64,000 nucleotides of DNA, from positions 4,070-68,069 of the forward strand of contig CAYLWO010000002.1 in NCBI GenBank assembly GCA_964387285.1, written 5' to 3'. The position numbers and the translations under genes are program-made. This document shows, piece by piece, positions 1-55,856 of this stretch. Origin of the DNA: an uncultured Cytophagia bacterium. Its GTDB lineage: Bacteria; Zhuqueibacterota; Zhuqueibacteria; Residuimicrobiales; Residuimicrobiaceae. How positions within the stretch are numbered: the stretch's first letter is position 1; every line of letters begins with the position of its first letter. The notes beneath the pieces were generated by a model. The model searched no databases. It was given only the letters and a program-made list of their open reading frames with translations, and was not told where the DNA came from.

Positions 1-1506
1 AAACAACCCAATGAAACCAACACCAACTATGCTCAGGGCGGCATAGCGGCCGTCTTTGACGAATCCGATTCGTTCGAGCGTCATGTACAGGACACGCTGC
101 AGGCCGGCGCCGGCTTGTGTCATGAGGACGCGGTGCGTCTGATTGTGGAGCAGGGACCCGGTCGTGTGCGCGAGTTGTTTGATCTCGGTGTGCAATTTAC
201 GCAAAAAGCAAACGGTCAATTTGACCTGGGTCGCGAAGGCGGTCACCACGGCAACCGCATTGTTCACGTCAAAGACCACACCGGCCGCGATGTAGAACAG
301 GCGTTGCTGGCCGCCGTCAAACAGAATCCCAGGATATCGTTATATGAAAATCACGTGGCGGTGGAACTCATAACCGAGCATCACATTTTTTCACCGCATC
401 CGCAGCAGGTGGACCTGCATTGCTGGGGCGCTTATGTACTGAATGTCAACGACAATCGCATCGAGCGCTTTTTAGCCAAGGCAACCATCCTGGCCACAGG
501 CGGTTGCGGCCAGGTTTATTTGCACACCACCAATCCATCCATTGCCACGGGCGACGGCGTGGCCTTGAGTTATCGCGCCGGCGCCCGTATCGCCAACATG
601 GAATTCATGCAGTTCCATCCCACCTCGCTGTATCACAGCGAAGCTAACTCGTTTCTCATCTCTGAAGCGGTGCGCGGCTTTGGCGGCATTCTCATTACTA
701 AATCCGGCGAATCGTTTATGGAAAAATATCATCAGATGGCCTCGCTGGCGCCGCGCGATGTGGTGGCCCGCGCCATTGACACCGAGATGAAAAAAAGCGG
801 TGAACCCTGTGTTTATCTGGACATCACGCACAAGGACAGCCAGGAAATCAGGAGCCATTTCCCGCATATTTATGAAAACTGTCTAAAGTACAAAATCGAC
901 ATCACCAGGGAACCCATTCCGGTGGTTCCGGCCGCCCATTACGCCTGCGGCGGCGTGGCCACCGACCTGCAGGCGCGCACCAGCATAGGCGGATTGTTTG
1001 CCGCCGGAGAGGTCGCATGCACCGGCGTGCACGGCGCCAATCGTCTGGCTTCCAACTCGTTGCTGGAAGCCGTTGTTTTCGGTCACATCGCCGGTGTTGG
1101 CGCTGCGCAACTTGTCCAGTCGCGCAAATATGAATTCCCGGCCATACCGCGCTGGGATGACAGCGCCACATTCAACAGCGAGGAGTGGGTGCTCATCTCC
1201 CACGACAAAATGGAAATTAAAAATATCATGTGGGATTATGTCGGCATTGTGCGCTCGACGCTGCGCCTGGAACGCGCCCTGAGCCGGGTCCGGCTGATCC
1301 GCCAGGAAATAGAAAACTTTTACCGCCGGACCAAAATCACCGAAGGGCTGATCGAACTCCGCAACCTGGCCACGGTCGCGCAACTGATCATTCAATCCGC
1401 CTTGCTGCGCAAAGAGAGCCGGGGATTGCACTTTACCACCGATTACACGAAAACGGATAATGAAAATTTTCTTCTGGATACCATATTACAGCGCATCGAT
1501 GTCTAG
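1..1506 (+). CDS. nadB: L-aspartate oxidase, 5'-truncated by window edge
   Basis: Frame 1 is open from base 1 ([21 protein letters not shown]...), so the ORF-track start at 115 is internal. Flavoprotein motifs [27 protein letters not shown] are typical of the NadB/succinate dehydrogenase family. Confidence 0.88.
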
Positions 1507-1572
1507 ACAAACGGTTTTTAGAATCGGCACAGCTACGTTATGGGCCAAAACCATTGAATCACAGGAGCTCCT

Positions 1573-2712
1573 ATGATCATTAAAAAAGTGATGGTGCGCG
1601 CTTTTAAATCACTGAATGAATTATCCCTGAACCTGGATCCCAAAATCAATGTCCTCATCGGCACCAATGAGAGCGGCAAATCCAACATTCTGAAATCCAT
1701 CGAAGCCTTTCGCCATGATGCGCTCTTTGACGCCACCCTGACTTGCCAGTATTCCAACCATTATTATATGGGCAAACCGCCGGAAATTATTGTCGAATGG
1801 AGCGGCCTGTCCAAAGAAAATCGCCGATACTTGCAGCAGATCTCCGATGTCTTTAAAGACGCTGAATCCTTTCAGGTCTGCCGGGACGGGATGGAGTATA
1901 AGGACTACCGTTTGTTCATCGGCGATAAGCAGATCGACAACATAGATATGCACAAATTGATTAAGGTGATGCCCAAAGTGCTCTATTTCGATGAAATCCG
2001 TTTGTTGAAAAATCGCGTCGACATGGATCAGCTTACATCCGGCAAAGCCGAATTCGCTACAGAAAAAAACCTGCTTAAAATCGGCGGCGTTGAAACCTAC
2101 GATCTCATCTTTGAAGACAGCGCTCGTGGAAGGCGCACGCTGGAAGAGGCGGGACGCATCATCTCTGAACAGATTCGTCGCGTATGGTCCCAGGAACCGA
2201 CCATTGAAGTCAAATTGAATGTGAACGGTAAATCGCTCTATATCGATTTCAGCGACAGCACCACGGTTTTCGATACGCCGGAATCGCGCAGTCTGGGATT
2301 CCGCTGGTATCTCTCGTTCTATGTAAATTTTCTTGCCCAGACTTTTGAAGGTCAGGCCAACGAATACATCTTTCTGATCGATGAGCCCGGCATTCACCTG
2401 CATCCGGCCGGACAAAAAGACCTGGTGCGCGTTCTAGAAGATCTGGCTTTAAAAAATCAGATCATTTACACGACCCATTCACCGTTTATGATCAATCGCG
2501 ATTATCCGGACCGGGTCACCCTGGTCATGAAGGATAAAAACGGCACCAAAATCGACCAGCTGTGCTATCGGGAAAACTGGAAACCGCTGCGCAACGAGAT
2601 CGGCCTCAAAGTCGGCGACCTTTTCTTTTTCAGCGACTCGAGCCTCATTTTAGAGTTACCCACAGGAAAAAAATTCAGTTTCCTGGACAAATTGCGCGGC
2701 GCTGCCGAATAA
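1573..2712 (+). CDS. OLD-family-like AAA ATPase (AAA_15/AAA_21 type), ATPase domain only, no Toprim
   Basis: Walker A LIGTNESGKSNILKS, ABC-signature-like SRSLGFRWYLSF, Walker B plus OLD-type IFLIDEPGIHLHPAGQ. RBS AGGAG lies 6 nt upstream of the ATG. Only 379 aa, and the convergent peptidase gene abuts at 2719, leaving no room for a nuclease domain. Confidence 0.6.
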   Translation: MIIKKVMVRAFKSLNELSLNLDPKINVLIGTNESGKSNILKSIEAFRHDALFDATLTCQYSNHYYMGKPPEIIVEWSGLSKENRRYLQQISDVFKDAESFQVCRDGMEYKDYRLFIGDKQIDNIDMHKLIKVMPKVLYFDEIRLLKNRVDMDQLTSGKAEFATEKNLLKIGGVETYDLIFEDSARGRRTLEEAGRIISEQIRRVWSQEPTIEVKLNVNGKSLYIDFSDSTTVFDTPESRSLGFRWYLSFYVNFLAQTFEGQANEYIFLIDEPGIHLHPAGQKDLVRVLEDLALKNQIIYTTHSPFMINRDYPDRVTLVMKDKNGTKIDQLCYRENWKPLRNEIGLKVGDLFFFSDSSLILELPTGKKFSFLDKLRGAAE

Positions 2713-2718
2713 TATCCG

Positions 2719-3948
2719 CTACAGCCCCATAAACACGTGCGCCAGCACACGGCTATCTGTCAACGTATTGGAAATCAACGATGATTCGTCCGGTTGATGG
2801 GCCGTATCTTCGATGGTAGACCACACGGCCGCCGGCAATCCTGCTGCGCGAAAAACCGCAGCTACGGTGCCGCCGCCGATACCGATCAATTTTGCTTCAA
2901 GGCCTTTGACCGTTTTAATGGCGCGCACCAGTGCCTGTACCACCGGCGCTTCCGCCGCTGTCGGCGGTGCAGCCTCAGCGCGCTGCCTGGATGACAGGGA
3001 AACCGTAACGCCGAATTGTTCTTGCACCTGTTTGCTGATTTCCGCTATTTTTTCTTCCACTTTATGCAAAGGGTATTGCGGCAACACCCGGCTGTCCAGA
3101 TAAAACACATCCTCGCCCGGAATACTGTTGATGTTGGGCACATTGCTCTCTTTTTTAGTCGGCTCAAACGTACTGATGGGCGGATCAAACAACTCATCGC
3201 TTTGATTGAACTGTTCATACAAACTGTCCAACTTGACGGCAAGGTGCGCAGCCGCCCGGTGCGCGTTAATGCCCAGGGCCGGCGTCGACGCATGACACTG
3301 TTTGCCCTGGACTTGCAACTGCAGCCAGAGAATGCTTTTTTCCGCGATTTCGATGGTCTGACCTACGGCATCGCCGGCGTCCGGAACAATGATGAGATCC
3401 TGATCGCTGAATTCTGCGCGATGCTTCTGCAGCAGATAATGCAAACCGTATTGGCTGCCGGTTTCTTCGTCCGCCACAATGGCCAGGCCGACGTTTAAAG
3501 CCGGCGTCATCGACAACTCTTTTAAAGCGGCCATGACAATCAATGCCGATACCAATCCCTGATGATTGTCCTCAACGCCACGACCAATCAAGCGGTCACC
3601 GTCGACTTTAAGCTGAAACGGATCACTGCTCCATAATTTGAGATCACCGGGCGGCACCACATCCAGATGCGCCAAAACCCACACCGTTTTGCTGCGATCC
3701 TGACCGTACCAACGTGCGAGCAAATTGGGACGGAATCCACAAGAAACCCGAGCATCCGGCGCCGGCAACTCTTTTAATTCATCGCACCCCAGGGTCGGTA
3801 ATAAACCTTTCACCCATTCCGCTTTTTCTTTCTCACCGTCGCCGCCGCTTTCCGGCGCCATGGCCGGAATGGCGGTCAGCGCCTGCTGCCAGGCAATGAC
3901 GCTAGCTGCTGATGCTTCGATGCGCGAATACAATTTTTCTAAGGACAT
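2719..3948 (-). CDS. M20 family metallopeptidase (ArgE/DapE-like)
   Basis: HLDVVP, GRGVEDNHQGL and ADEETGS metal-ligand motifs of M20 peptidases; 409 aa. Confidence 0.75.
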   Translation of the reverse strand: MSLEKLYSRIEASAASVIAWQQALTAIPAMAPESGGDGEKEKAEWVKGLLPTLGCDELKELPAPDARVSCGFRPNLLARWYGQDRSKTVWVLAHLDVVPPGDLKLWSSDPFQLKVDGDRLIGRGVEDNHQGLVSALIVMAALKELSMTPALNVGLAIVADEETGSQYGLHYLLQKHRAEFSDQDLIIVPDAGDAVGQTIEIAEKSILWLQLQVQGKQCHASTPALGINAHRAAAHLAVKLDSLYEQFNQSDELFDPPISTFEPTKKESNVPNINSIPGEDVFYLDSRVLPQYPLHKVEEKIAEISKQVQEQFGVTVSLSSRQRAEAAPPTAAEAPVVQALVRAIKTVKGLEAKLIGIGGGTVAAVFRAAGLPAAVWSTIEDTAHQPDESSLISNTLTDSRVLAHVFMGL

Positions 3949-5803: not shown

Positions 5804-6148
5804 GGACCCGTGTTTTTGTTTAATGGAGATTGCAGATAATCCTGAATGGAGCGATCATTGCCCTCGCCAAGGTCCAAAAAGTATCGGAAGCGTTTCATTC
5901 CGAACCCGCTTTCGCGGGTGAGGAATCTATCAGCGAACTGTTATTACGTCAGTTACGAATTTTTCTACAAGGCCGCTTGCCAAATCAAAACTGCGAAAAT
6001 CTAACTTTTTGGACACCTAAAGGTTATTTTTCGAGCACATCTCGCTCAATTTAGGATAATATAAAAAATGGCAGAGTATTATACAAGCGGTTTAGCAGAG
6101 GGTGCTTATGGCAATGGTTCAAAGGTGTGACGTCAAAAAATCTAAACA

Positions 6149-8644
6149 TTAAAATCCGGTTCTGGCGCCGGACTGCGCATTGCTCAAAATCAACACGTAA
6201 TCATCGAGATCGATAAGCGCATCGGCATTTAGATCAGCGTCTTGATATCCGGTCGGTGTGGTACGCGCCGTGTTGAACCATAACACATAATCGCTGGTAG
6301 TTACATAACCATCCTGATTAATGTCTCCGGCTACAGAGGCCCATACCCCGGTGCTTACCTCAACCGCCGAATGGGCGCCAAAATAGCGGTCCGGATTTGT
6401 GGAAAAATCATAAGAGACAACGGTTCCTGGGGTAAAGGAAAGCATGGCGCTGCTTATAATTTTTAGGTGATTTCTGGTTGCAACAGAGATGTAATATACC
6501 CCAGTTGTCAGGCCGGTCAATGCAATGGCAGTATTGCCATTTTTATCCATAACCTGACCGTCCTGGCGAAGATAAAGATCATAGTAACCGGCCAGACTTG
6601 AACGGTCTGCCATATACAATTGCACTTGCAGGCTGTCAACACAATCCGCCGGTGGTGTGCCGGGCAATGCCGGATTGACGCGCATTTCCGGCCCAACATA
6701 TGGTCCCTGCAAATACAATTTAAGAAAGAGTGAACAGGTCGCAGTTTCCTGATATTCAAACGCACCCAGTTCCGGGGCTGAACCGGAATAGCCGTCATTA
6801 ATGCCGGGAATGTACTCGCCTTTGTTGAGCATGGCGCTCGAATTGAGTAATCCATAATCGCCGGCAGCAGGGTTAGCAAACCCGGGTTGCGCGTGAACGC
6901 CATGCACTTCATGTCCAGTGGCGGCTGTGAACGAAAGCAAATCCGTATAAATAGCCGGATACCAACGCACCAATGTCCCGACTGCAGGCGTCCAATAGCC
7001 GTTATAATCAAAATCGATCGGTTGACTGATGTTATAATCGTACAATGCATAACTGGTGCCCGACCAGATATTGTTTCTGGCATAAATCATTTCCCACTCT
7101 CCCGGTTGTTTGATATGCAGGCCATGGTTGCCGGACTCGGCAACATCACAGGTGTTGTGGAAAATATAGATAACGCCGGAGCGAGAGTAACCGCTGTTGA
7201 ATTTAAACGGCGTGCCTTCGTAGGAATTGCTGCCCTCGCCTGTTCGATAAATCAGATTGCGCAACAGATAGATCGGACCGACATAAACGGGCGCCACGGA
7301 AATACCGACCAACACTTCATGGATGGTGTTGTCCCAGATGCGCACGTTGCTGGCCATGCCGTCTGCTTCCATGCCGTCGTCGCCGCATCGGTACATGGTA
7401 TTGCCATACACATCGGTTTCATTGGTCGTTGTCGTTTCGCTTTCAGGACAGGCGGAAAATCCGTCAAAGCAATCATGAAACACATTATTGCGAATGACCG
7501 TGCCTCTTCCAGTGACCGGATCAAACGTAGTGATATTGCCGATGCTCAACGGCGAATCGTCATAAAAGTATTCCCAGGGCCAGTCATAAACGTCATCATA
7601 GAATTCATTGTCTTCAATGACATTGCGGTCGGAATTGCGCTTGATGCCAACGCCGATATTGTTCATCGCAAACGTGCAGTTTTTGATCAAACAATAGTCC
7701 GCATTGTTCAGATAAACGGCCTTGGGCGTGCCGCCGCTGCCATAAAATCTAAAGGTGATATCTTGCACACAAACATAATTCCGTGCCTCAATCAGCAAGG
7801 CATGATTGTAACGGGAAAGTATCATTGTCGCCAGATTGGGATCCTGCATGTCGGCCAAGCGGACATAGATCGTCGTGCCATCGGTAAAAGAGCCGGGGAT
7901 GCCCCATTTCAGATTTTGTAGATCAGTCAGGTTCTTATACGGCATGAGTCTTTTTCCATTGGCCGCAATAAACAAAACATCGCTGACTGAGACCGTTGTA
8001 CGATAGACGCCGCCGCCAGCCGCCGTCCAAGCGTACACGGCAGGATCGCTGCCGTCCATAATCGCAATCTCGTCATCATAACCTCTGATGACGATCGGCG
8101 CCGTGCTGCTGCCGGAACGCGGCCAGGCGATCTCGCCTTGACGATATACGCCGCCGCGTAAAACGATTTCATCGCCGGCCTGGGCGACCTGGGCCGCATG
8201 AGCCAATGTGGCAAACGGTTCCTCAATTGAGCCTGGATTGGCATCGAGTCCGGTTGTGCTGACATAGTAGGAATGCAGCGGCGCAGGAATGACAATTTCT
8301 GCCCGGGTAGTTTGCGAACCGCTAACGATCACGCCGTCCAAAGGATCCGAATCACTGTCGCTGAAGGAGACGCGAACTTCATAGGTTTGTCCGGGTTGCA
8401 GATAAAAAATACTGCCGACAAAACGAGTATCGCTGACGCGCGTCAAGGGAAAGCCGGTTCGATAACTCGCGCCGGTCAAACGACACTCCGGTATCGCGAC
8501 CGCATCACGATCCGGATCATCGCTGCTGGCGATGGTTACTATGACGCCCAGGGTGTGAAAATTGCCGTATAATTCCATGGTTGCGGGCAATACTGTATTG
8601 TGCGCCAAACAGACTACTAGGCAGGTAAATAGTATTCGTACCAT
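6149..8644 (-). CDS. Secreted right-handed parallel beta-helix (pectate-lyase-fold) protein with C-terminal dockerin repeats
   Basis: Signal peptide MVRILFTCLVVCLAHNTVLPA. The repetitive NN/G-rich beta-helix region includes IRNNVFHDCFDGF. Two dockerin type-I-like repeats sit at the C-terminus (DINQDGYVTTSDYVLWFN; DLNADALIDLDDYVLILSN). Confidence 0.65.
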   Translation of the reverse strand: MVRILFTCLVVCLAHNTVLPATMELYGNFHTLGVIVTIASSDDPDRDAVAIPECRLTGASYRTGFPLTRVSDTRFVGSIFYLQPGQTYEVRVSFSDSDSDPLDGVIVSGSQTTRAEIVIPAPLHSYYVSTTGLDANPGSIEEPFATLAHAAQVAQAGDEIVLRGGVYRQGEIAWPRSGSSTAPIVIRGYDDEIAIMDGSDPAVYAWTAAGGGVYRTTVSVSDVLFIAANGKRLMPYKNLTDLQNLKWGIPGSFTDGTTIYVRLADMQDPNLATMILSRYNHALLIEARNYVCVQDITFRFYGSGGTPKAVYLNNADYCLIKNCTFAMNNIGVGIKRNSDRNVIEDNEFYDDVYDWPWEYFYDDSPLSIGNITTFDPVTGRGTVIRNNVFHDCFDGFSACPESETTTTNETDVYGNTMYRCGDDGMEADGMASNVRIWDNTIHEVLVGISVAPVYVGPIYLLRNLIYRTGEGSNSYEGTPFKFNSGYSRSGVIYIFHNTCDVAESGNHGLHIKQPGEWEMIYARNNIWSGTSYALYDYNISQPIDFDYNGYWTPAVGTLVRWYPAIYTDLLSFTAATGHEVHGVHAQPGFANPAAGDYGLLNSSAMLNKGEYIPGINDGYSGSAPELGAFEYQETATCSLFLKLYLQGPYVGPEMRVNPALPGTPPADCVDSLQVQLYMADRSSLAGYYDLYLRQDGQVMDKNGNTAIALTGLTTGVYYISVATRNHLKIISSAMLSFTPGTVVSYDFSTNPDRYFGAHSAVEVSTGVWASVAGDINQDGYVTTSDYVLWFNTARTTPTGYQDADLNADALIDLDDYVLILSNAQSGARTGF

Positions 8645-35261: not shown

Positions 35262-38200
35262 TTAATTGTTTGCGGCTGTGTTTTGAGCTGCGTCAAATTT
35301 AACGGACACAACCTTTGACACGCCCTTTTCTTCCATGGTGATGCCGTAAAGTTGATCCGCAGCGCGCATGGTCATCTTGTTATGCGTTACCACCATGAAT
35401 TGCGTGTTTTTCGAAAACTCTTTCAAGGCATTGGTGAAACGCGTTACATTACGATCATCCAACGGCGCGTCCACTTCATCAAATATGCAAAACGGGCTCG
35501 GTTTATACAGATAAATGGCAAACAACAACGAGATGGCGGTCAATGATTTTTCCCCGCCGGAGAGCAACGTCAGGGCCGTCATTTTTTTGCCGCCGGGGGT
35601 GGCGAGAATATCAATCTCCGCCTCCAGCGGATCTGCCGTTTCCTGCAAAGCCAGACTGGCGCGGCCGCCTTCAAAAAAAGTACCGAACACCTGGGAAAAA
35701 TTGACCTGCACCTTTTCAAAAGTCTCCATGAATTTTTGCCGTGCGGTCGAATTGATGATGTCGATGGTTTCCGTCAGATTCTTGCGCGCCTTGATCAAAT
35801 CATCGCGTTGCGCCTGCAAAAACTCCATGCGTTCCTTTTCCTGCTCAAACTCTTTCAACGAAAGCAGATTGACCGGTCCCACCTCTTTGATTTTTTCGCG
35901 CATCTCTTCAATGAGTTTCGTGGTTTCTTCCGCGTTAAAAGCCTCGTCCACCGCTCCTCGTTGCAGCGTGTATTCAAACTCTTCGCGCATGCGCGATTTC
36001 AAGTTCTCCAGCCGCAGCTTTAACTCGGACACCCGGAGTTCTATCTTGTGCACCGACTCGGCCAGTTCGTCCAGTTTGCCGCGCTCGGTGCGAATGGCTT
36101 TTTCCTGTTCTGCCACATGGGTGTTGGTTTGAAATTGCTGCTCCTCCAGCTGGGTCAACTCTGTCTGCAAGATCTCCTTTTTGCCGTCTAGTTCCTGAAC
36201 CCGGTTATTATACTCCTGATTGGCCTCATTTAGTTCCAAAATTTCCTTGTGCGCCCGGTCGGTTTCCTCGGTGCGCATGCGGATCAGACCCTGGGTCTCC
36301 TGCACCTGGCGCAGAATCGAATCGCTCTCCCGTTTAAGCGCTTCGAAATCACTCTGCAGCTTGGCCACCTGCACATTGATCTCCTGCAGACGAATAGATG
36401 CCTTCGCCATGGTCTGTTCCGCCTGCTTGATCTCCTCGCCCAATTGATTGGCCAGCTGTCCCAACTGTTGACGACGTGCGGTCAAATCATCGGCGCCCAG
36501 CGCCTGCATTTCCAGATTCTGGCCCAATTGACTAACTTCGCCCAACAGATGTTGTCGCTCTGAAATCTGCTTGTTGTGCGTATCTTGCAGACTGCCTTCT
36601 TCAAAAGACATCCTGCCCAACTCGACTTTGAGATTGGCCAGGTCTTCTTCCATTTTTTTGATTTCAGCCGTTTGCACTTCAACGTCGATTTTGCTGCGCT
36701 GAATATCCACTTCCTTTTGTGCCATCTGCGTGTGTCGGCTGTCAATGGCCAGCTTTAACTTGTCGATCTCCTGCACCAGCGCCTGCAACTGTTCCTGGCG
36801 TCCGACAAAATCAGACTGATTGCGATGATTAGCGCCGCCGCGAATGTACCCGGCATGACCCAACACCTCGCCGGCCAAGGTGACCACATTGATCTGTTGC
36901 GCTTTAACCTGATTATAGATGCGGTTGGCCGTTTGCAGGTCTTGAACGACAAGGTAATGACCCAAAACCGCACGGATCAATTCATTGAACGACTCTTCGT
37001 GACTGACCAGTTCGTCAGCATAACCGACCACTCCGAGATCGCCGATCACCGGCCGGCCGTTCACATTCCATTTGATGTCATGACGCGGAGCAAACGTAAC
37101 AACGCCCCGTTTCTCTTCTTTCAACAAACCGATGCCGTTAAAAGCGGCTGTGGCATCCTCCACCACCAACCAGGTCGCGGCCTCTCCGAGGCTGGCGGAA
37201 ATCGCCGTGCGAAAATTGGGTTGTACCTGAATGATGTTGGCCAGCGGACCAAAACTGGCGAAACCGATCTCTTTGTTTGTGGCCAGATAACGGACGCCGG
37301 AAGGATAGTCTTCATAATTGTCAATAAGGCGTTTGACCAACTCGGCCTGATGCGTCAACACCTCGACCCGGTTGCGGTCCTGGCTTTCCGCTTTCTGCAT
37401 CTGTTCAAAGGACCGCTTCATCTCCTCTTCACTGCGCGTCAGTTCCGCAACTTTTTTCTTTTTCTGTTCCAGACTTGCCGACAAGCCGAGCTCACGGCTG
37501 CGTGCAGCCTGCAGCACGCCGGTGAGTTCCAAGAGCCGATCATTGATCGTCTTTTCTTCTTCGTTGATCTGCGCAATGCGACGCGACAGATTCTCTTCCG
37601 TTGCCTTGAGACGTTCGCCTTCATTTTGTTTGCGGCTTAACTCTTCGGTGATGATCAACACCTGCGACTCGGATTCACGGAAACGCACGCGTTTTTCTTC
37701 ATATTCACGGCGGATATTTTCATATTCCCGTGTTGCCTGAATCTGCTCTGTTAAATTTCCGTTCAACACTCGCTCGGATTCAGCATTGCGAGTATCGATG
37801 ATCTGTTGCTGTTCCAGCAACGCCTGCAACTTGATTTCCAGCGATTCCCGTTCCTGTATATAACGCAAATTCGACTCTTCCAACGAGCGGATGCGTTCGC
37901 TGTTGACGAGAATGCGCTCTTCAAACTTTTGCATTTCACGCATATAGTCATTAACCAGGCGCTGCTTTTCGGACAACTGACGTTCGATTTCCAGCAAACG
38001 CATACGGGTGGTTTCATAATCCGCATCGCGATTGGCCAGAACACCGGACGAGGCCTCGCGCTCGTCTCTTGCCAATGCGAGATGTGTTTCCAGCGGTTCC
38101 AATTCCAGCGACAGCTTGTTGAACTCATGATCCGCCAGTTTGATCTCCAGCGCTTTAAGCTCTTCCGCCAATTCCTGATATCGCTGCGCCTTGGCCACCT

Positions 38201-38822
38201 GTCGCCGCAGGGTGCGTACATTTTTCTCCACCTCAGACATGATGTCCTCGATGCGGATCAAATCCTTTTCCGTGGATTCCAGTTTGCGGAAAGTGGCTTT
38301 ACGGCGCAATTTGTATTTGGTGATGCCCGCGGCTTCTTCAAAAATTTTTCGCCTTTCATCCTCTTTGCCGTTGAGAATGCGTTCTACCTGCGCCAATTCG
38401 ATGACCGAATAGGTGTGCGGTCCGGCGCCCGTGTCCAGAAACAGATCCAGGATATCCTTCAATCGACAGGTGTTGCCGTTGATGAGATATTGGCTCTCGC
38501 CGGAGCGGAACAACCGGCGGGTAATGAGCACTTCAGAATAGTCAATGGGCAAAATATTTTTAGTGTTCTCAATTTTCAAAGAGACTTCAGCCATGCCTAC
38601 CGGCTTGGCCGTGGCGGAACCGTTAAAGATAACGTTTTCCATGCGATCGCTGCGCAAGGCGCCGGTGCGCTGTTCTCCCATCACCCAGCGGATCGAGTCG
38701 ACGATGTTGCTCTTGCCGCAGCCGTTAGGGCCGACAATACCGGTTATACCGTCATGAAGAACGATGTTGGTCTTTTTCGCAAACGATTTAAACCCGACGA
38801 TTGTAAGTTCAGAAAGGTACAC
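35262..38822 (-). CDS. smc: Chromosome segregation protein SMC
   Basis: N-term Walker A GPNGCGKSNIVDSIRWVMGEQ. Long coiled coils, hinge, C-terminal LSGGEKSLTAISLLFAI signature and DEVDAPLD Walker B. 1186 aa. Confidence 0.9.
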   Translation of the reverse strand: MYLSELTIVGFKSFAKKTNIVLHDGITGIVGPNGCGKSNIVDSIRWVMGEQRTGALRSDRMENVIFNGSATAKPVGMAEVSLKIENTKNILPIDYSEVLITRRLFRSGESQYLINGNTCRLKDILDLFLDTGAGPHTYSVIELAQVERILNGKEDERRKIFEEAAGITKYKLRRKATFRKLESTEKDLIRIEDIMSEVEKNVRTLRRQVAKAQRYQELAEELKALEIKLADHEFNKLSLELEPLETHLALARDEREASSGVLANRDADYETTRMRLLEIERQLSEKQRLVNDYMREMQKFEERILVNSERIRSLEESNLRYIQERESLEIKLQALLEQQQIIDTRNAESERVLNGNLTEQIQATREYENIRREYEEKRVRFRESESQVLIITEELSRKQNEGERLKATEENLSRRIAQINEEEKTINDRLLELTGVLQAARSRELGLSASLEQKKKKVAELTRSEEEMKRSFEQMQKAESQDRNRVEVLTHQAELVKRLIDNYEDYPSGVRYLATNKEIGFASFGPLANIIQVQPNFRTAISASLGEAATWLVVEDATAAFNGIGLLKEEKRGVVTFAPRHDIKWNVNGRPVIGDLGVVGYADELVSHEESFNELIRAVLGHYLVVQDLQTANRIYNQVKAQQINVVTLAGEVLGHAGYIRGGANHRNQSDFVGRQEQLQALVQEIDKLKLAIDSRHTQMAQKEVDIQRSKIDVEVQTAEIKKMEEDLANLKVELGRMSFEEGSLQDTHNKQISERQHLLGEVSQLGQNLEMQALGADDLTARRQQLGQLANQLGEEIKQAEQTMAKASIRLQEINVQVAKLQSDFEALKRESDSILRQVQETQGLIRMRTEETDRAHKEILELNEANQEYNNRVQELDGKKEILQTELTQLEEQQFQTNTHVAEQEKAIRTERGKLDELAESVHKIELRVSELKLRLENLKSRMREEFEYTLQRGAVDEAFNAEETTKLIEEMREKIKEVGPVNLLSLKEFEQEKERMEFLQAQRDDLIKARKNLTETIDIINSTARQKFMETFEKVQVNFSQVFGTFFEGGRASLALQETADPLEAEIDILATPGGKKMTALTLLSGGEKSLTAISLLFAIYLYKPSPFCIFDEVDAPLDDRNVTRFTNALKEFSKNTQFMVVTHNKMTMRAADQLYGITMEEKGVSKVVSVKFDAAQNTAANN

Positions 38823-54332: not shown

Positions 54333-55856
54333 ATGCATGTCAGTCTAAAACATATTTCCAAATCATACTCCGGGAACCGCGTGTTGAACCGGGTATGCAT
54401 GACCGTGGACCAAGGGCAAATCCATGCGCTGATTGGTGAAAACGGCGCCGGGAAATCGACGCTGATGAAAATTCTGCTTGGCGTGGAGCAGGCGGACAGC
54501 GGGGATATCGTGATCGATGGTGAAAACAAACGATGGCAACACCCGAGCAAAGCTCGCGAGGCCGGCATTGCCATGGTTTATCAGGAGCTGTCATTGATCC
54601 CGTCGCTCACAGTCGTTGAAAATGTTTTTCTGGGCCGGCTCCTGACAGGCCGTACACGACTTGTCAATTGGGCGGAGATGAAGCGGCAGGCGGAGCGGAT
54701 ATTTCACGAACTTTTATTTCCGATTGACCCGGGGGAAATGGTCGATGAACTATCTGTCGCTGAAAAGCAGATGGTGGAGATTGCCCGGGCACTGGCACAG
54801 AATGCCGAGCTGATTATCCTTGATGAACCGACATCACCGCTGACCGAACAGGATGCAAACAGATTGTTCAGCCGAATCAAAATTCTGGCGGAAAAAGGCG
54901 TGAGCGTTGTTTATATCACGCATCGGTTGGAAGAGGTTTTTCACATCGCTCATCATATCTCCATTTTACGCGATGGTGAGCTGGTCCGTTCATGCCCGAT
55001 TAACGAGGTGGACATGGCTGCGATGGTCCGGGATATGGTTGGCCGGGAGTTGGCGGAGCAATTTCCGCCGAGAACGAAAATGCGTGCAGACGTGTCAAAG
55101 CATATTGCGCTTAAGGTCGATCAGGCGACTCGAAAGAATGAATTTTATGATATCAGCTTTTCTGCCCGGGAAGGTGAAATACTGGGCTTTGCAGGATTGG
55201 TCGGCGCCGGCCGCACGGAATTGGTGGAAGCGATTTTTGGCGTGCATAAACTCGACCGGGGGAACATCGAGATCAGGAAAAGAGCCGTTAAAATTCATTC
55301 GCCGGCGCAGGCCGTAAAGAGCGGAATAGGATTGATTCCGGATGATCGCAAAGTCAAGGGGCTGGTTCCGGATGCGGCTGTCGATTTTAATTTGAGCATG
55401 GCAACCGGACAAAAATATGCGACGCGTTGGGGCTGGCGCCTGCAAAACCGCGAAAGGACTGCCGCAAAGCATCTTGTTGCGAATTTGCGCATCAAACTCT
55501 CTTCCCTGAGCCGGCATGTGGCGCGATTAAGCGGCGGAAACCAGCAAAAAGTCGCCATCGGCAAATCGTTGAACAGCGATTCCTCAATTCTGATTTTTGA
55601 TGAGCCAACCCGGGGCATCGATGTCGCAGCCAAGCGCGAAATATACCATCTGTTGCGTAAATTGGCGGATGACGGGGCTGCGATCATTCTGGTATCTTCC
55701 GAACTGGAGGAAATTTTAGGATTATCGGATCGAATTTTAGTCATGTGTCAGGGTCGGCTCGCTGGTGAACTTGCATCGGCAGAAGCAACCCAGGAAAAGA
55801 TTATGTATATGGCGTTAGGAGCCGGTCAATCATTTGAAAATGGAACCAGGTTATGA
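54333..55856 (+). CDS. Sugar ABC transporter ATP-binding protein (tandem ABC domains, RbsA/MglA-like)
   Basis: Two Walker A motifs (GENGAGKST; GLVGAGRTE) and two LSGG signatures. 507 aa. Confidence 0.85.
   Translation: MHVSLKHISKSYSGNRVLNRVCMTVDQGQIHALIGENGAGKSTLMKILLGVEQADSGDIVIDGENKRWQHPSKAREAGIAMVYQELSLIPSLTVVENVFLGRLLTGRTRLVNWAEMKRQAERIFHELLFPIDPGEMVDELSVAEKQMVEIARALAQNAELIILDEPTSPLTEQDANRLFSRIKILAEKGVSVVYITHRLEEVFHIAHHISILRDGELVRSCPINEVDMAAMVRDMVGRELAEQFPPRTKMRADVSKHIALKVDQATRKNEFYDISFSAREGEILGFAGLVGAGRTELVEAIFGVHKLDRGNIEIRKRAVKIHSPAQAVKSGIGLIPDDRKVKGLVPDAAVDFNLSMATGQKYATRWGWRLQNRERTAAKHLVANLRIKLSSLSRHVARLSGGNQQKVAIGKSLNSDSSILIFDEPTRGIDVAAKREIYHLLRKLADDGAAIILVSSELEEILGLSDRILVMCQGRLAGELASAEATQEKIMYMALGAGQSFENGTRL

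Follow-up and report, generated by a model that had tools for sequence, protein, structure and literature searches.

The window analysed here is the whole stretch of 64,000 nucleotides (assembly GCA_964387285.1, contig CAYLWO010000002.1, positions 4,070 to 68,069) from an uncultured Cytophagia bacterium, placed by GTDB in the Zhuqueibacterota. Close to its left edge is a gene for an OLD-family ATPase that has no Toprim nuclease domain, and this gene and its family are the subject of this work. The gene, its motifs and its immediate neighbours are listed below in window coordinates.

1573..2712, + strand: complete gene for a 379-residue Toprim-less OLD-family (AAA_15) ABC ATPase; open reading frame (ORF) from ATG, identified by Pfam and by its homologues
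1563..1567, + strand: Shine-Dalgarno-like AGGAG, 6 nt 5' of the ATPase ATG, read directly from the sequence
1660..1686, + strand: Walker A (P-loop) GTNESGKSN, residues 30–38, from motif conservation
1741..1755, + strand: Q-loop-like TCQYS, residues 57–61, the Q-loop label being inferred from position
2284..2310, + strand: ABC signature-like SRSLGFRWY, residues 238–246, from motif conservation
2368..2406, + strand: Walker B and D-loop IFLIDEPGIHLHP, residues 266–278, aligning with TsOLD 6p74 and PtuA 8ee4
2470..2481, + strand: H-loop TTHS, residues 300–303, from motif conservation
2617..2670, + strand: C-terminal stub DLFFFSDSSLILELPTGK, residues 349–366, linker and first β-strand of the lost Toprim domain
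1..1506, + strand: nadB (L-aspartate oxidase), 5' end outside the window; TIGR00551, 501.5 bits against a cutoff of 452.75
2719..3948, − strand: M20 metallo-hydrolase, convergent with the ATPase; NF010589, 544.6 bits against a cutoff of 333

A sequence-only reading of this DNA had described an OLD/AAA_15-type ATPase with these motifs, 379 residues long, without a Toprim domain and lying between nadB and a convergent M20 gene. All of this is confirmed. Pfam matches the protein to AAA_15 (3.8e-27) and AAA_21 (8e-15) and gives no match to a Toprim domain, and both neighbours score above the cutoffs of their models. Nucleotides 1–114 have no in-frame stop codon, which shows that nadB extends past the left edge of the window, and the stop codons of the ATPase and M20 genes are 6 nt apart. 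The ATPase gene is clearly real and under selection, because it has several hundred homologues and a ratio of non-synonymous to synonymous substitution (dN/dS) of 0.079 against its orthologue in the related locus L001. Its GC content is rather low (0.475), and recent horizontal acquisition was therefore considered. It was ruled out, because the GC content at third codon positions (0.605) matches that of the window (mean 0.563 ± 0.045), and the composition bears no mark of recent transfer. Inside the gene there is an antisense ORF of 264 residues (1621–2415, − strand), and similarly long antisense ORFs (161–425 residues; cluster c15) are present in five related loci (L002, L003, L036, L045 and L048). 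Most likely the antisense ORF reflects codon usage and does not represent a gene.

The catalytic motifs are highly conserved. Walker A residues G30, N32, G35, K36 and N38 are invariant across 41 family members and 13 full-length OLD relatives, and R239, S240 and G242 of the signature are invariant in the family and also in the outgroup OLD nucleases. Within the family, the same is true of T57, C58, Q59 and Y60 in the Q-loop-like motif, of D270, E271, H275, H277 and P278 in Walker B and the D-loop, and of T301, H302 and S303 in the H-loop.

A homologue search of 5.8 billion proteins returned 764 matches. The best 120 of the 764 are 375–412 residues long and 62–96% identical to the window ATPase, and are labelled candidate division KSB1, 'Calditrichaeota' or Zhuqueibacterota. 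A later search added about 100 clusters (352–394 residues), and more than 200 homologous clusters at 90% identity have lengths of 373–392 residues, the family length overall being about 375–390 residues. In a library clustered at 50% identity the family reduces to a single full-length representative (552 bits), the next match, fragments aside, scoring 266 bits. For the analysis of inheritance and context, one genome of each GTDB species was scanned for a pattern, which provided 54 loci (L001–L054) in 53 metagenome-assembled genomes (MAGs). They cover at least two of the five orders of the phylum, namely o__DRLW01/Zhuqueibacterales and o__AABM5-25-91/Thermofontimicrobiales (p__KSB1). One MAG, CAZTNL01, has two copies of a clpC-ATPase arrangement (L028 and L054, with ATPases 62% and 61% identical to that of the window), neither followed by the S58 peptidase gene described below; these may represent a paralogue, a strain mixture or a binning artefact.

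Vertical inheritance was judged from correlations between pairwise identities, which are a proxy for a reconciled gene and species tree. The values for the ATPase and for the products of genes that commonly accompany it are as follows.

ATPase: mean pairwise identity 0.70
LysS: mean pairwise identity 0.69; correlation with ATPase divergence r = 0.91
LolC: mean pairwise identity 0.59; r = 0.86
McsB: mean pairwise identity 0.49; r = 0.84
S58: mean pairwise identity 0.57; r = 0.67 (Spearman 0.46)
ClpC: mean pairwise identity 0.81; r = 0.64 (Spearman 0.88)

The dN/dS of the ATPase is also low for two further pairs, at 0.109 between the window and L002 and 0.040 between L002 and L003. Among 2.9 million viral contigs there are no members of the family, only partial relatives at 27–47% identity. 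From these sequence comparisons, the ATPase family appears to be vertically inherited within KSB1/Zhuqueibacterota and under strong purifying selection. The generic pattern of a defence gene, patchy and horizontally spread in islands or on mobile elements, is not seen here.

To describe the genomic context, the ORFs of the 54 loci were clustered and the clusters annotated by Pfam and NCBIfam. The commonest gene order is lysS, lolC-like, lolD-like, mcsA, mcsB, clpC, the ATPase, S58, a gamma-carbonic-anhydrase-like LbH protein and NhaC. In 32 loci clpC is directly upstream of the ATPase, with a spacer of 60–390 nt. Many of these spacers (200 nt upstream, L004–L054) contain the recurrent words CTTGA[TC]TTG (TTGAYTT) and TTATATT, which suggests, as a sequence pattern, that the ATPase or ATPase-S58 unit has its own conserved promoter. 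A regulator box of the SOS or CtsR type was also sought in this region, where only the promoter-like words and no palindromic operator were seen.

The gene directly downstream, on the same strand, is in 39 of the 49 called loci that of an S58 (DmpA/P1-type) peptidase. The gap between the two genes is −4 to +11 nt in most loci, including 4-nt overlaps of start and stop codons. Genes so close together imply an ATPase-S58 operon, and as the ATPase has a promoter-like region of its own, the pair looks like a single transcription unit. It is retained behind clpC, SpoIID, prfB and several unclustered upstream genes, and in two orders. A second context is seen in seven loci (L004, L009, L013, L017, L019, L031 and L050), where prfB and the gene of a SpoIID-domain protein precede the ATPase and S58, and the genes of a convergent sigma-54 activator and a membrane protein come after them; every one of the seven with a taxonomic placement belongs to o__AABM5-25-91 (Thermofontimicrobiales). 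The S58 neighbour is missing in approximately 10–14 loci, among them the window, L001–L003, L016, L026, L037, L042 and L054.

The arrangement in the window is thus not the usual one. A nadB gene is directly beside the ATPase only in the window and in L001–L003, which have no S58 there; in L040 it is about 700 nt upstream, followed by the ATPase and S58. M20 adjoins the ATPase in relatives only in L001, the position being mostly occupied by S58 elsewhere. No S58 gene is present anywhere within the 64-kb window. Given that a nadB neighbour is rare, that S58 has gone and that ATPase-S58 is the usual pairing, the nadB/M20 context of the window is a derived minority rearrangement of a conserved ATPase-S58 unit. 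A conserved position next to nadB is ruled out by the same observations. The ATPase of the window lineage is equally constrained despite the loss of S58, as its dN/dS against L001 shows. The sequence-only reading had called the gene an orphan, and this description does not survive the comparison with relatives, most of which have the ATPase-S58 unit. It had also proposed a check of synteny, which reveals the core context from lysS to clpC, and had suggested that stand-alone homologues conserved beside nadB across a phylum would speak against a defence role. Conservation of this kind is found in substance, at a position beside clpC and S58 and not beside nadB.

It is worth adding that a large polysaccharide-biosynthesis region starts just past the M20 gene (3961 to about 33000). 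It contains genes for WbqC, a GT4 glycosyltransferase, five GT2-family glycosyltransferases and radical-SAM proteins, and also for an 831-residue protein of unknown type (6149–8644). L001 lacks the 831-residue gene between the GT4 gene and the next conserved gene.

The origin of the short protein can be seen from its nearest relatives outside the family. These share 30–44% identity with the window ATPase over residues ~90–361, and are mostly 580–700 residues long. Their alignments to it end at residues 361–368, and in nine of ten tested relatives Pfam identifies an OLD-like_TOPRIM domain that begins exactly where the alignment ends. In a multiple alignment the relatives continue past the end point of the family with the Toprim motifs LIVEGxSD...DxDxxG; the KSB1 ATPases terminate with LILELPTxKK and a short variable tail. 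HMMER aligns the family with Gabija GajA from end to end (1–369 with 1–385), matching 'sslilELPtkk' to 'rvlliEGPsEK'. This places E361, encoded at nucleotides 2653–2655, on GajA E379, which is the invariant catalytic glutamate of the Toprim domain (PMC10781630). The window ATPase stops 18 residues past the equivalent of E379, with no equivalents of GajA G409 or D432/D434. Of the catalytic Glu, Gly and DxD of OLD nucleases, only the glutamate and the β1 strand that carries it remain. Within the stub, D349, F352 and F353 do not vary, and conservation reaches at least 90% at E361, P363 and K366.

From the alignments of the relatives and the match to GajA, we conclude that the family is an OLD-family ATPase stripped of its Toprim domain after the first strand. 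The break point is identical in all family members. Because the same end point and length occur in unrelated contexts, the truncation is ancient, and is not an effect of the junction with M20. One protein, P0122 (415 residues), was considered as a second Toprim-less lineage and rejected. It is a singleton on a 2.4-kb contig, its relatives are of ~630 residues with a Toprim domain, and it has for these reasons probably been cut by the contig end.

The Toprim-bearing relatives have a patchy distribution, in Bathyarchaeota, Helarchaeota, Chryseolinea, Enterobacter, Serratia, Escherichia (including plasmids) and Paenibacillus. They adjoin HEPN-NTase, MazE, TIR or Rep genes, or sit within an integrative and conjugative element with TraG and a RES toxin. 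The relative of highest identity (P0124, 44%) is encoded at 6001–7995 of the Bathyarchaeota contig JAOZHP010000043 (L055), where its neighbours are a HEPN-nucleotidyltransferase pair, a MazE-like antitoxin, a TIR_2 protein and a Rep-like gene; these surroundings look like an archaeal defence island. The Toprim-bearing relatives thus fit the pattern expected of defence OLD proteins, whereas the KSB1 ATPase family does not.

A nuclease, helicase or other partner was sought around the gene. A Toprim hidden Markov model (HMM), built from the 12 nearest full-length relatives, matched 137 of the collected proteins as a positive control. Run against six-frame translations of the 64-kb window and of the 54 loci with 8 kb on either side, it found no Toprim gene (best E=1.5), although an OLD-type Toprim profile might miss a divergent DUF4435. 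PADLOC models gave no partner of the AriB, PtuB or GajB type among the 48 other ORFs of the window, the only matches being to generic ATPases and radical-SAM proteins (an SMC, an ABC transporter, and radical SAM to pVip). Neither in the window nor in the 54 related loci is there a helicase (GajB) gene downstream of the ATPase, and the 8 kb on either side of the ATPase in the 54 loci contain no defence genes. The S58, M20 and hexapeptide (LbH) proteins were considered as defence components and discarded, having no PADLOC matches. No fusion protein was seen among the listed homologues. The absence of a nearby nuclease or helicase partner, noted in the sequence-only reading, is therefore upheld.

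The profile matches of the ATPase itself need to be interpreted with care. Its best PADLOC matches are AriA (5e-29) and Old (6e-25), followed by PtuA and GajA. The AriA alignment has its best stretch at residues 1–180 of the ATPase, against positions 1–177 of the 373 in the profile, while the AriA chains in the PDB (8ux9 and 8v45, ~7e-7) match residues 262–306 only. Among solved structures, those nearest to it in sequence are TsOLD, PtuA, GajA and AriA, with PtuA 8ee4 at 1e-11. No NCBIfam equivalog comes near its cutoff. Identity as PtuA was rejected on this basis (NF041760, 59.7 bits against a cutoff of 500), as was identity as RecF or RecN: the RecF model TIGR00611 gives 32.5 bits against a cutoff of 172, in the P-loop region alone (residues 3–44). 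Best matches to RecF or RecN, which the sequence-only reading had named as evidence against its proposal, are thus not what is found. Some public records of the family or its relatives (P0459 and P0270) are named 'DNA replication and repair protein RecF', a name that such a score does not support.

Other genes in the window show how little these PADLOC matches discriminate. A chromosomal SMC (35265–38822, − strand; Pfam SMC_N 5e-64) matches mad3 at 1.4e-65 and LmuB at 4e-19, and also the GajA, AriA and PtuA models. A two-domain sugar-type ABC-transporter ATPase (54333–55853, + strand) matches mad3 at 1.4e-41 and mad8 at 9e-16. The mad3 scores of both exceed every PADLOC match of the OLD-type ATPase. 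These are generic cross-matches among ABC ATPases, and there is no MADS or Lamassu system. Since a housekeeping SMC and an ABC transporter score more strongly than the ATPase, its PADLOC similarity is no evidence of defence; the PADLOC search advised by the sequence-only reading did return the OLD-type matches, and to that extent agreed with it.

AlphaFold2, run with the family alignment, gave a model with a mean pLDDT (predicted local distance difference test) of 80.6 and a predicted template modelling score (pTM) of 0.77. Residues 1–340 are confidently predicted, and residues 342–379 have a pLDDT below 50. A Foldseek search of the PDB identified SMC heads, PtuA, TsOLD, Rad50 and GajA (E ~1e-14, template modelling scores 0.46–0.54). 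The predicted fold is that of a generic SMC/Rad50/OLD head, and points to no particular function. Although disorder is predicted for the C-terminal stub, few stretches of the protein are better conserved. Disorder together with strong conservation is typical of docking or strand-exchange elements, and the stub is likely to be such an element.

Among known systems, the closest are the class 1 OLD proteins (P2 Old, Thermus scotoductus OLD 6P74, Vibrio cholerae OLD and E. coli YbjD/OldB), with which we group an uncharacterised clade of full-length OLD proteins (P0123, P0124 and P0375–P0379). They are stand-alone genes with the same AAA_15 motifs, and the OLD relatives share with the KSB1 ATPase the subfamily motifs LLKIGG, FEDS, W.Q, PESRS.GFRW, DEPG.HLHP.GQKDL and NQ.IY.THSPF. 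Class 1 proteins differ in having a C-terminal Toprim nuclease of 200 residues (E, G, DxD) and in being patchily distributed over bacteria, archaea and plasmids, whereas the KSB1 ATPase ends after Toprim β1, is confined to one phylum and is inherited vertically. Residues 1–377 of E. coli YbjD, with the Toprim domain deleted, retain activity, seen as an anti-phage phenotype on over-expression (PMC13261556). That construct has about the same length as the natural KSB1 ATPase.

For an OLD protein with a housekeeping role, the best functional parallel may be Cran1, an OLD-family ATPase-nickase of the Sulfolobales (clade U11 of Yang et al. 2025; PMC12796447). Cran1 is vertically inherited and apparently essential; it functions in progression through the cell cycle, not in defence, and the phenotype seen on over-expression is due to its ATPase domain (PMC12796447). 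We liken the two on inheritance and context, both being lineage-bound OLD proteins in non-defence surroundings: by the identity proxy used above, divergence of the KSB1 ATPase follows the lineage. The differences are that Cran1 is archaeal, has an active Toprim nickase and is linked by experiment to chromatin and the cell cycle, while the KSB1 family is bacterial, nuclease-less and known from genes.

The other candidates are more distant. PARIS AriA (class 4 OLD) is likewise an ATPase-only polypeptide, its Toprim protein AriB being separate. AriA has ~464 residues and its gene always lies beside ariB (DUF4435/Toprim); it is often phage- or satellite-borne (PMC11464382). PARIS requires the adjacent ariB; the window ATPase is instead flanked by nadB and M20, and its family is not a mobile one. 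The ABC ATPase fold and motifs are common to Septu PtuA, retron-associated PtuA and Gabija GajA as well, but PtuA works with the HNH nuclease PtuB, and GajA has a Toprim domain and the helicase GajB, and neither partner is present at the ATPase. RecF is of similar size (~360–380 residues), and the RecF, SMC and Rad50 heads are nuclease-less ABC ATPases that dimerise on ATP; unlike SMC and Rad50, the KSB1 ATPase has no coiled-coil insertion, and its evolutionary affinity is to OLD nucleases. The protein therefore has the AAA_15 ATPase of OLD and lacks the defining features of Gabija, Septu and RecF and the adjacent partner of PARIS. We came across no published account of an OLD ATPase that is without Toprim and conserved throughout a phylum; the supplements of the Cran1 paper have no KSB1 entries, and the word 'defense' is absent from the Zhuqueibacterota paper.

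Because the gene is inherited vertically and is nearly unchanged across KSB1/Zhuqueibacterota, it looks to us like a domesticated housekeeping gene rather than an orphan defence gene, and we consider it probable, though well short of certain, that the ATPase is a constitutive non-defence cellular protein acting as an ATP-gated dimeric switch. In this proposal, the Toprim domain of an OLD-family nuclease ancestor would have been deleted just past its first strand, in or before the last common ancestor of the KSB1 orders sampled (at least two of five), and the ABC ATPase module would then have been kept vertically as a core gene under purifying selection. In a dimer, two ATP molecules would be bound at the interface, each held by the Walker A of one protomer and the signature of its partner, and their binding and hydrolysis would toggle the dimer between states, as in SMC, Rad50, RecF and OLD heads. 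As there is no nuclease, the output would have to be partner binding, scaffolding or remodelling rather than cleavage, with the disordered conserved stub as a likely docking element. The precedents of Cran1 and YbjD 1–377 make such a switch plausible. The role we consider most likely is the handling of chromosomes or nucleic acids, comparable to that of Cran1, RecF or SMC. A role coupled to S58 is the main alternative, and phage defence is not favoured.

Several points weigh against this interpretation. The housekeeping role is inferred solely from inheritance pattern, conservation and context, and all the genomes are MAGs. 'Phylum-wide' conservation means presence in many species of at least two orders, and a defence gene fixed across a phylum would be unusual but not impossible. 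The proteins are near neutral (isoelectric point (pI) ~5.7–9.1, mean 6.7), and so offer no hint of DNA binding; net charge and pI were set aside as uninformative on this question. Adjacency to clpC is weak evidence because synteny is generally high in the phylum, and adjacency to S58 fails in the 10–14 loci noted above, including the window. Finally, intact motifs are no proof of turnover, because GajA binds ATP and may not hydrolyse it.

The alternative involving S58 holds that the ATPase and this N-terminal nucleophile (Ntn) hydrolase form one module, in which the ATPase would be an ATP-gated regulator, scaffold or substrate-delivery partner; the module would perhaps be tied to McsAB-ClpC quality control, and the window lineage would merely have split the genes. 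We think this unlikely, although it explains why S58 so often follows the ATPase with little or no gap, why the pair persists across contexts and in two orders with its own promoter-like region, and what a conserved disordered stub could be for, namely a docking peptide. Set against these points, the ATPase is equally constrained in lineages where S58 is missing, S58 is less conserved than the ATPase and tracks it less closely than LysS does, and no fusion protein is seen among the listed homologues. Moreover, we know of no OLD/SMC-type ATPase that partners a peptidase.

A function in anti-phage defence or abortive infection seems to us less likely again. The ATPase would here be a constitutive OLD-type sensor fixed in the chromosome, acting alone, as the minimal abortive-infection ATPase suggested by the sequence-only reading, or through an effector encoded elsewhere in the genome, for instance a PARIS-like AriB. 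It is the reading to which the best PADLOC matches and the closest solved structures point, YbjD 1–377 provides a truncated form that keeps an anti-phage phenotype, and the search for an effector was confined to the window and the 54 loci. However, conservation like that of LysS, dN/dS of no more than 0.11 and core synteny are the opposite of what is seen in the patchy Toprim-bearing relatives; no defence gene or Toprim is found within 8 kb in the 54 loci and the family is absent from viral contigs; and the PADLOC ATPase models are unspecific (a housekeeping SMC at 1e-65). A stand-alone abortive-infection ATPase is thus unsupported, as is a defence ATPase with a distant effector, given also the uniform length of the family. 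The sequence-only reading had further offered a partner-less remnant, that is a decaying piece of Gabija, PARIS, Septu or class 1 OLD truncated where M20 was juxtaposed. From the window alone this is understandable, since the protein has no Toprim domain, ends after the first Toprim strand and lies 6 nt from the convergent M20 gene. It is effectively refuted by the shared end point and length (~375–390 residues) of every family member in unrelated contexts, by the invariant catalytic motifs and by a dN/dS of 0.04–0.11, and we give it almost no credence.

A more far-reaching proposal combines some of these elements: in this phylum an OLD nuclease directed against phages would have lost its nuclease and become an indispensable ATPase with a new cellular task, performed with S58 beside the McsAB-ClpC genes, and the remaining Toprim strand, with its formerly catalytic Glu, would serve as its docking peptide. 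We hold this to be doubtful. If true, archaeal Cran1 would have its first counterpart in bacteria, and no ABC/OLD ATPase known before this one would have a peptidase as its partner.

The housekeeping interpretation has consequences for annotation and for the biology of the family. OLD/AAA_15 ATPases are read as phage-defence markers by automated pipelines, and the KSB1 clade is a case where this inference fails; PADLOC-type ATPase matches need genomic context before a defence call is made. The clade also offers a natural Toprim-less form with which to ask what an OLD ATPase does alone, and a testable pairing of ATPase and S58. Here a nuclease has been discarded and the ATPase then conserved across the phylum as strongly as a tRNA synthetase, which suggests that the ATPase module has, by itself, an activity on which selection can act. 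Taken with Cran1, this points to repeated recruitment of defence-type OLD proteins into core cell biology.

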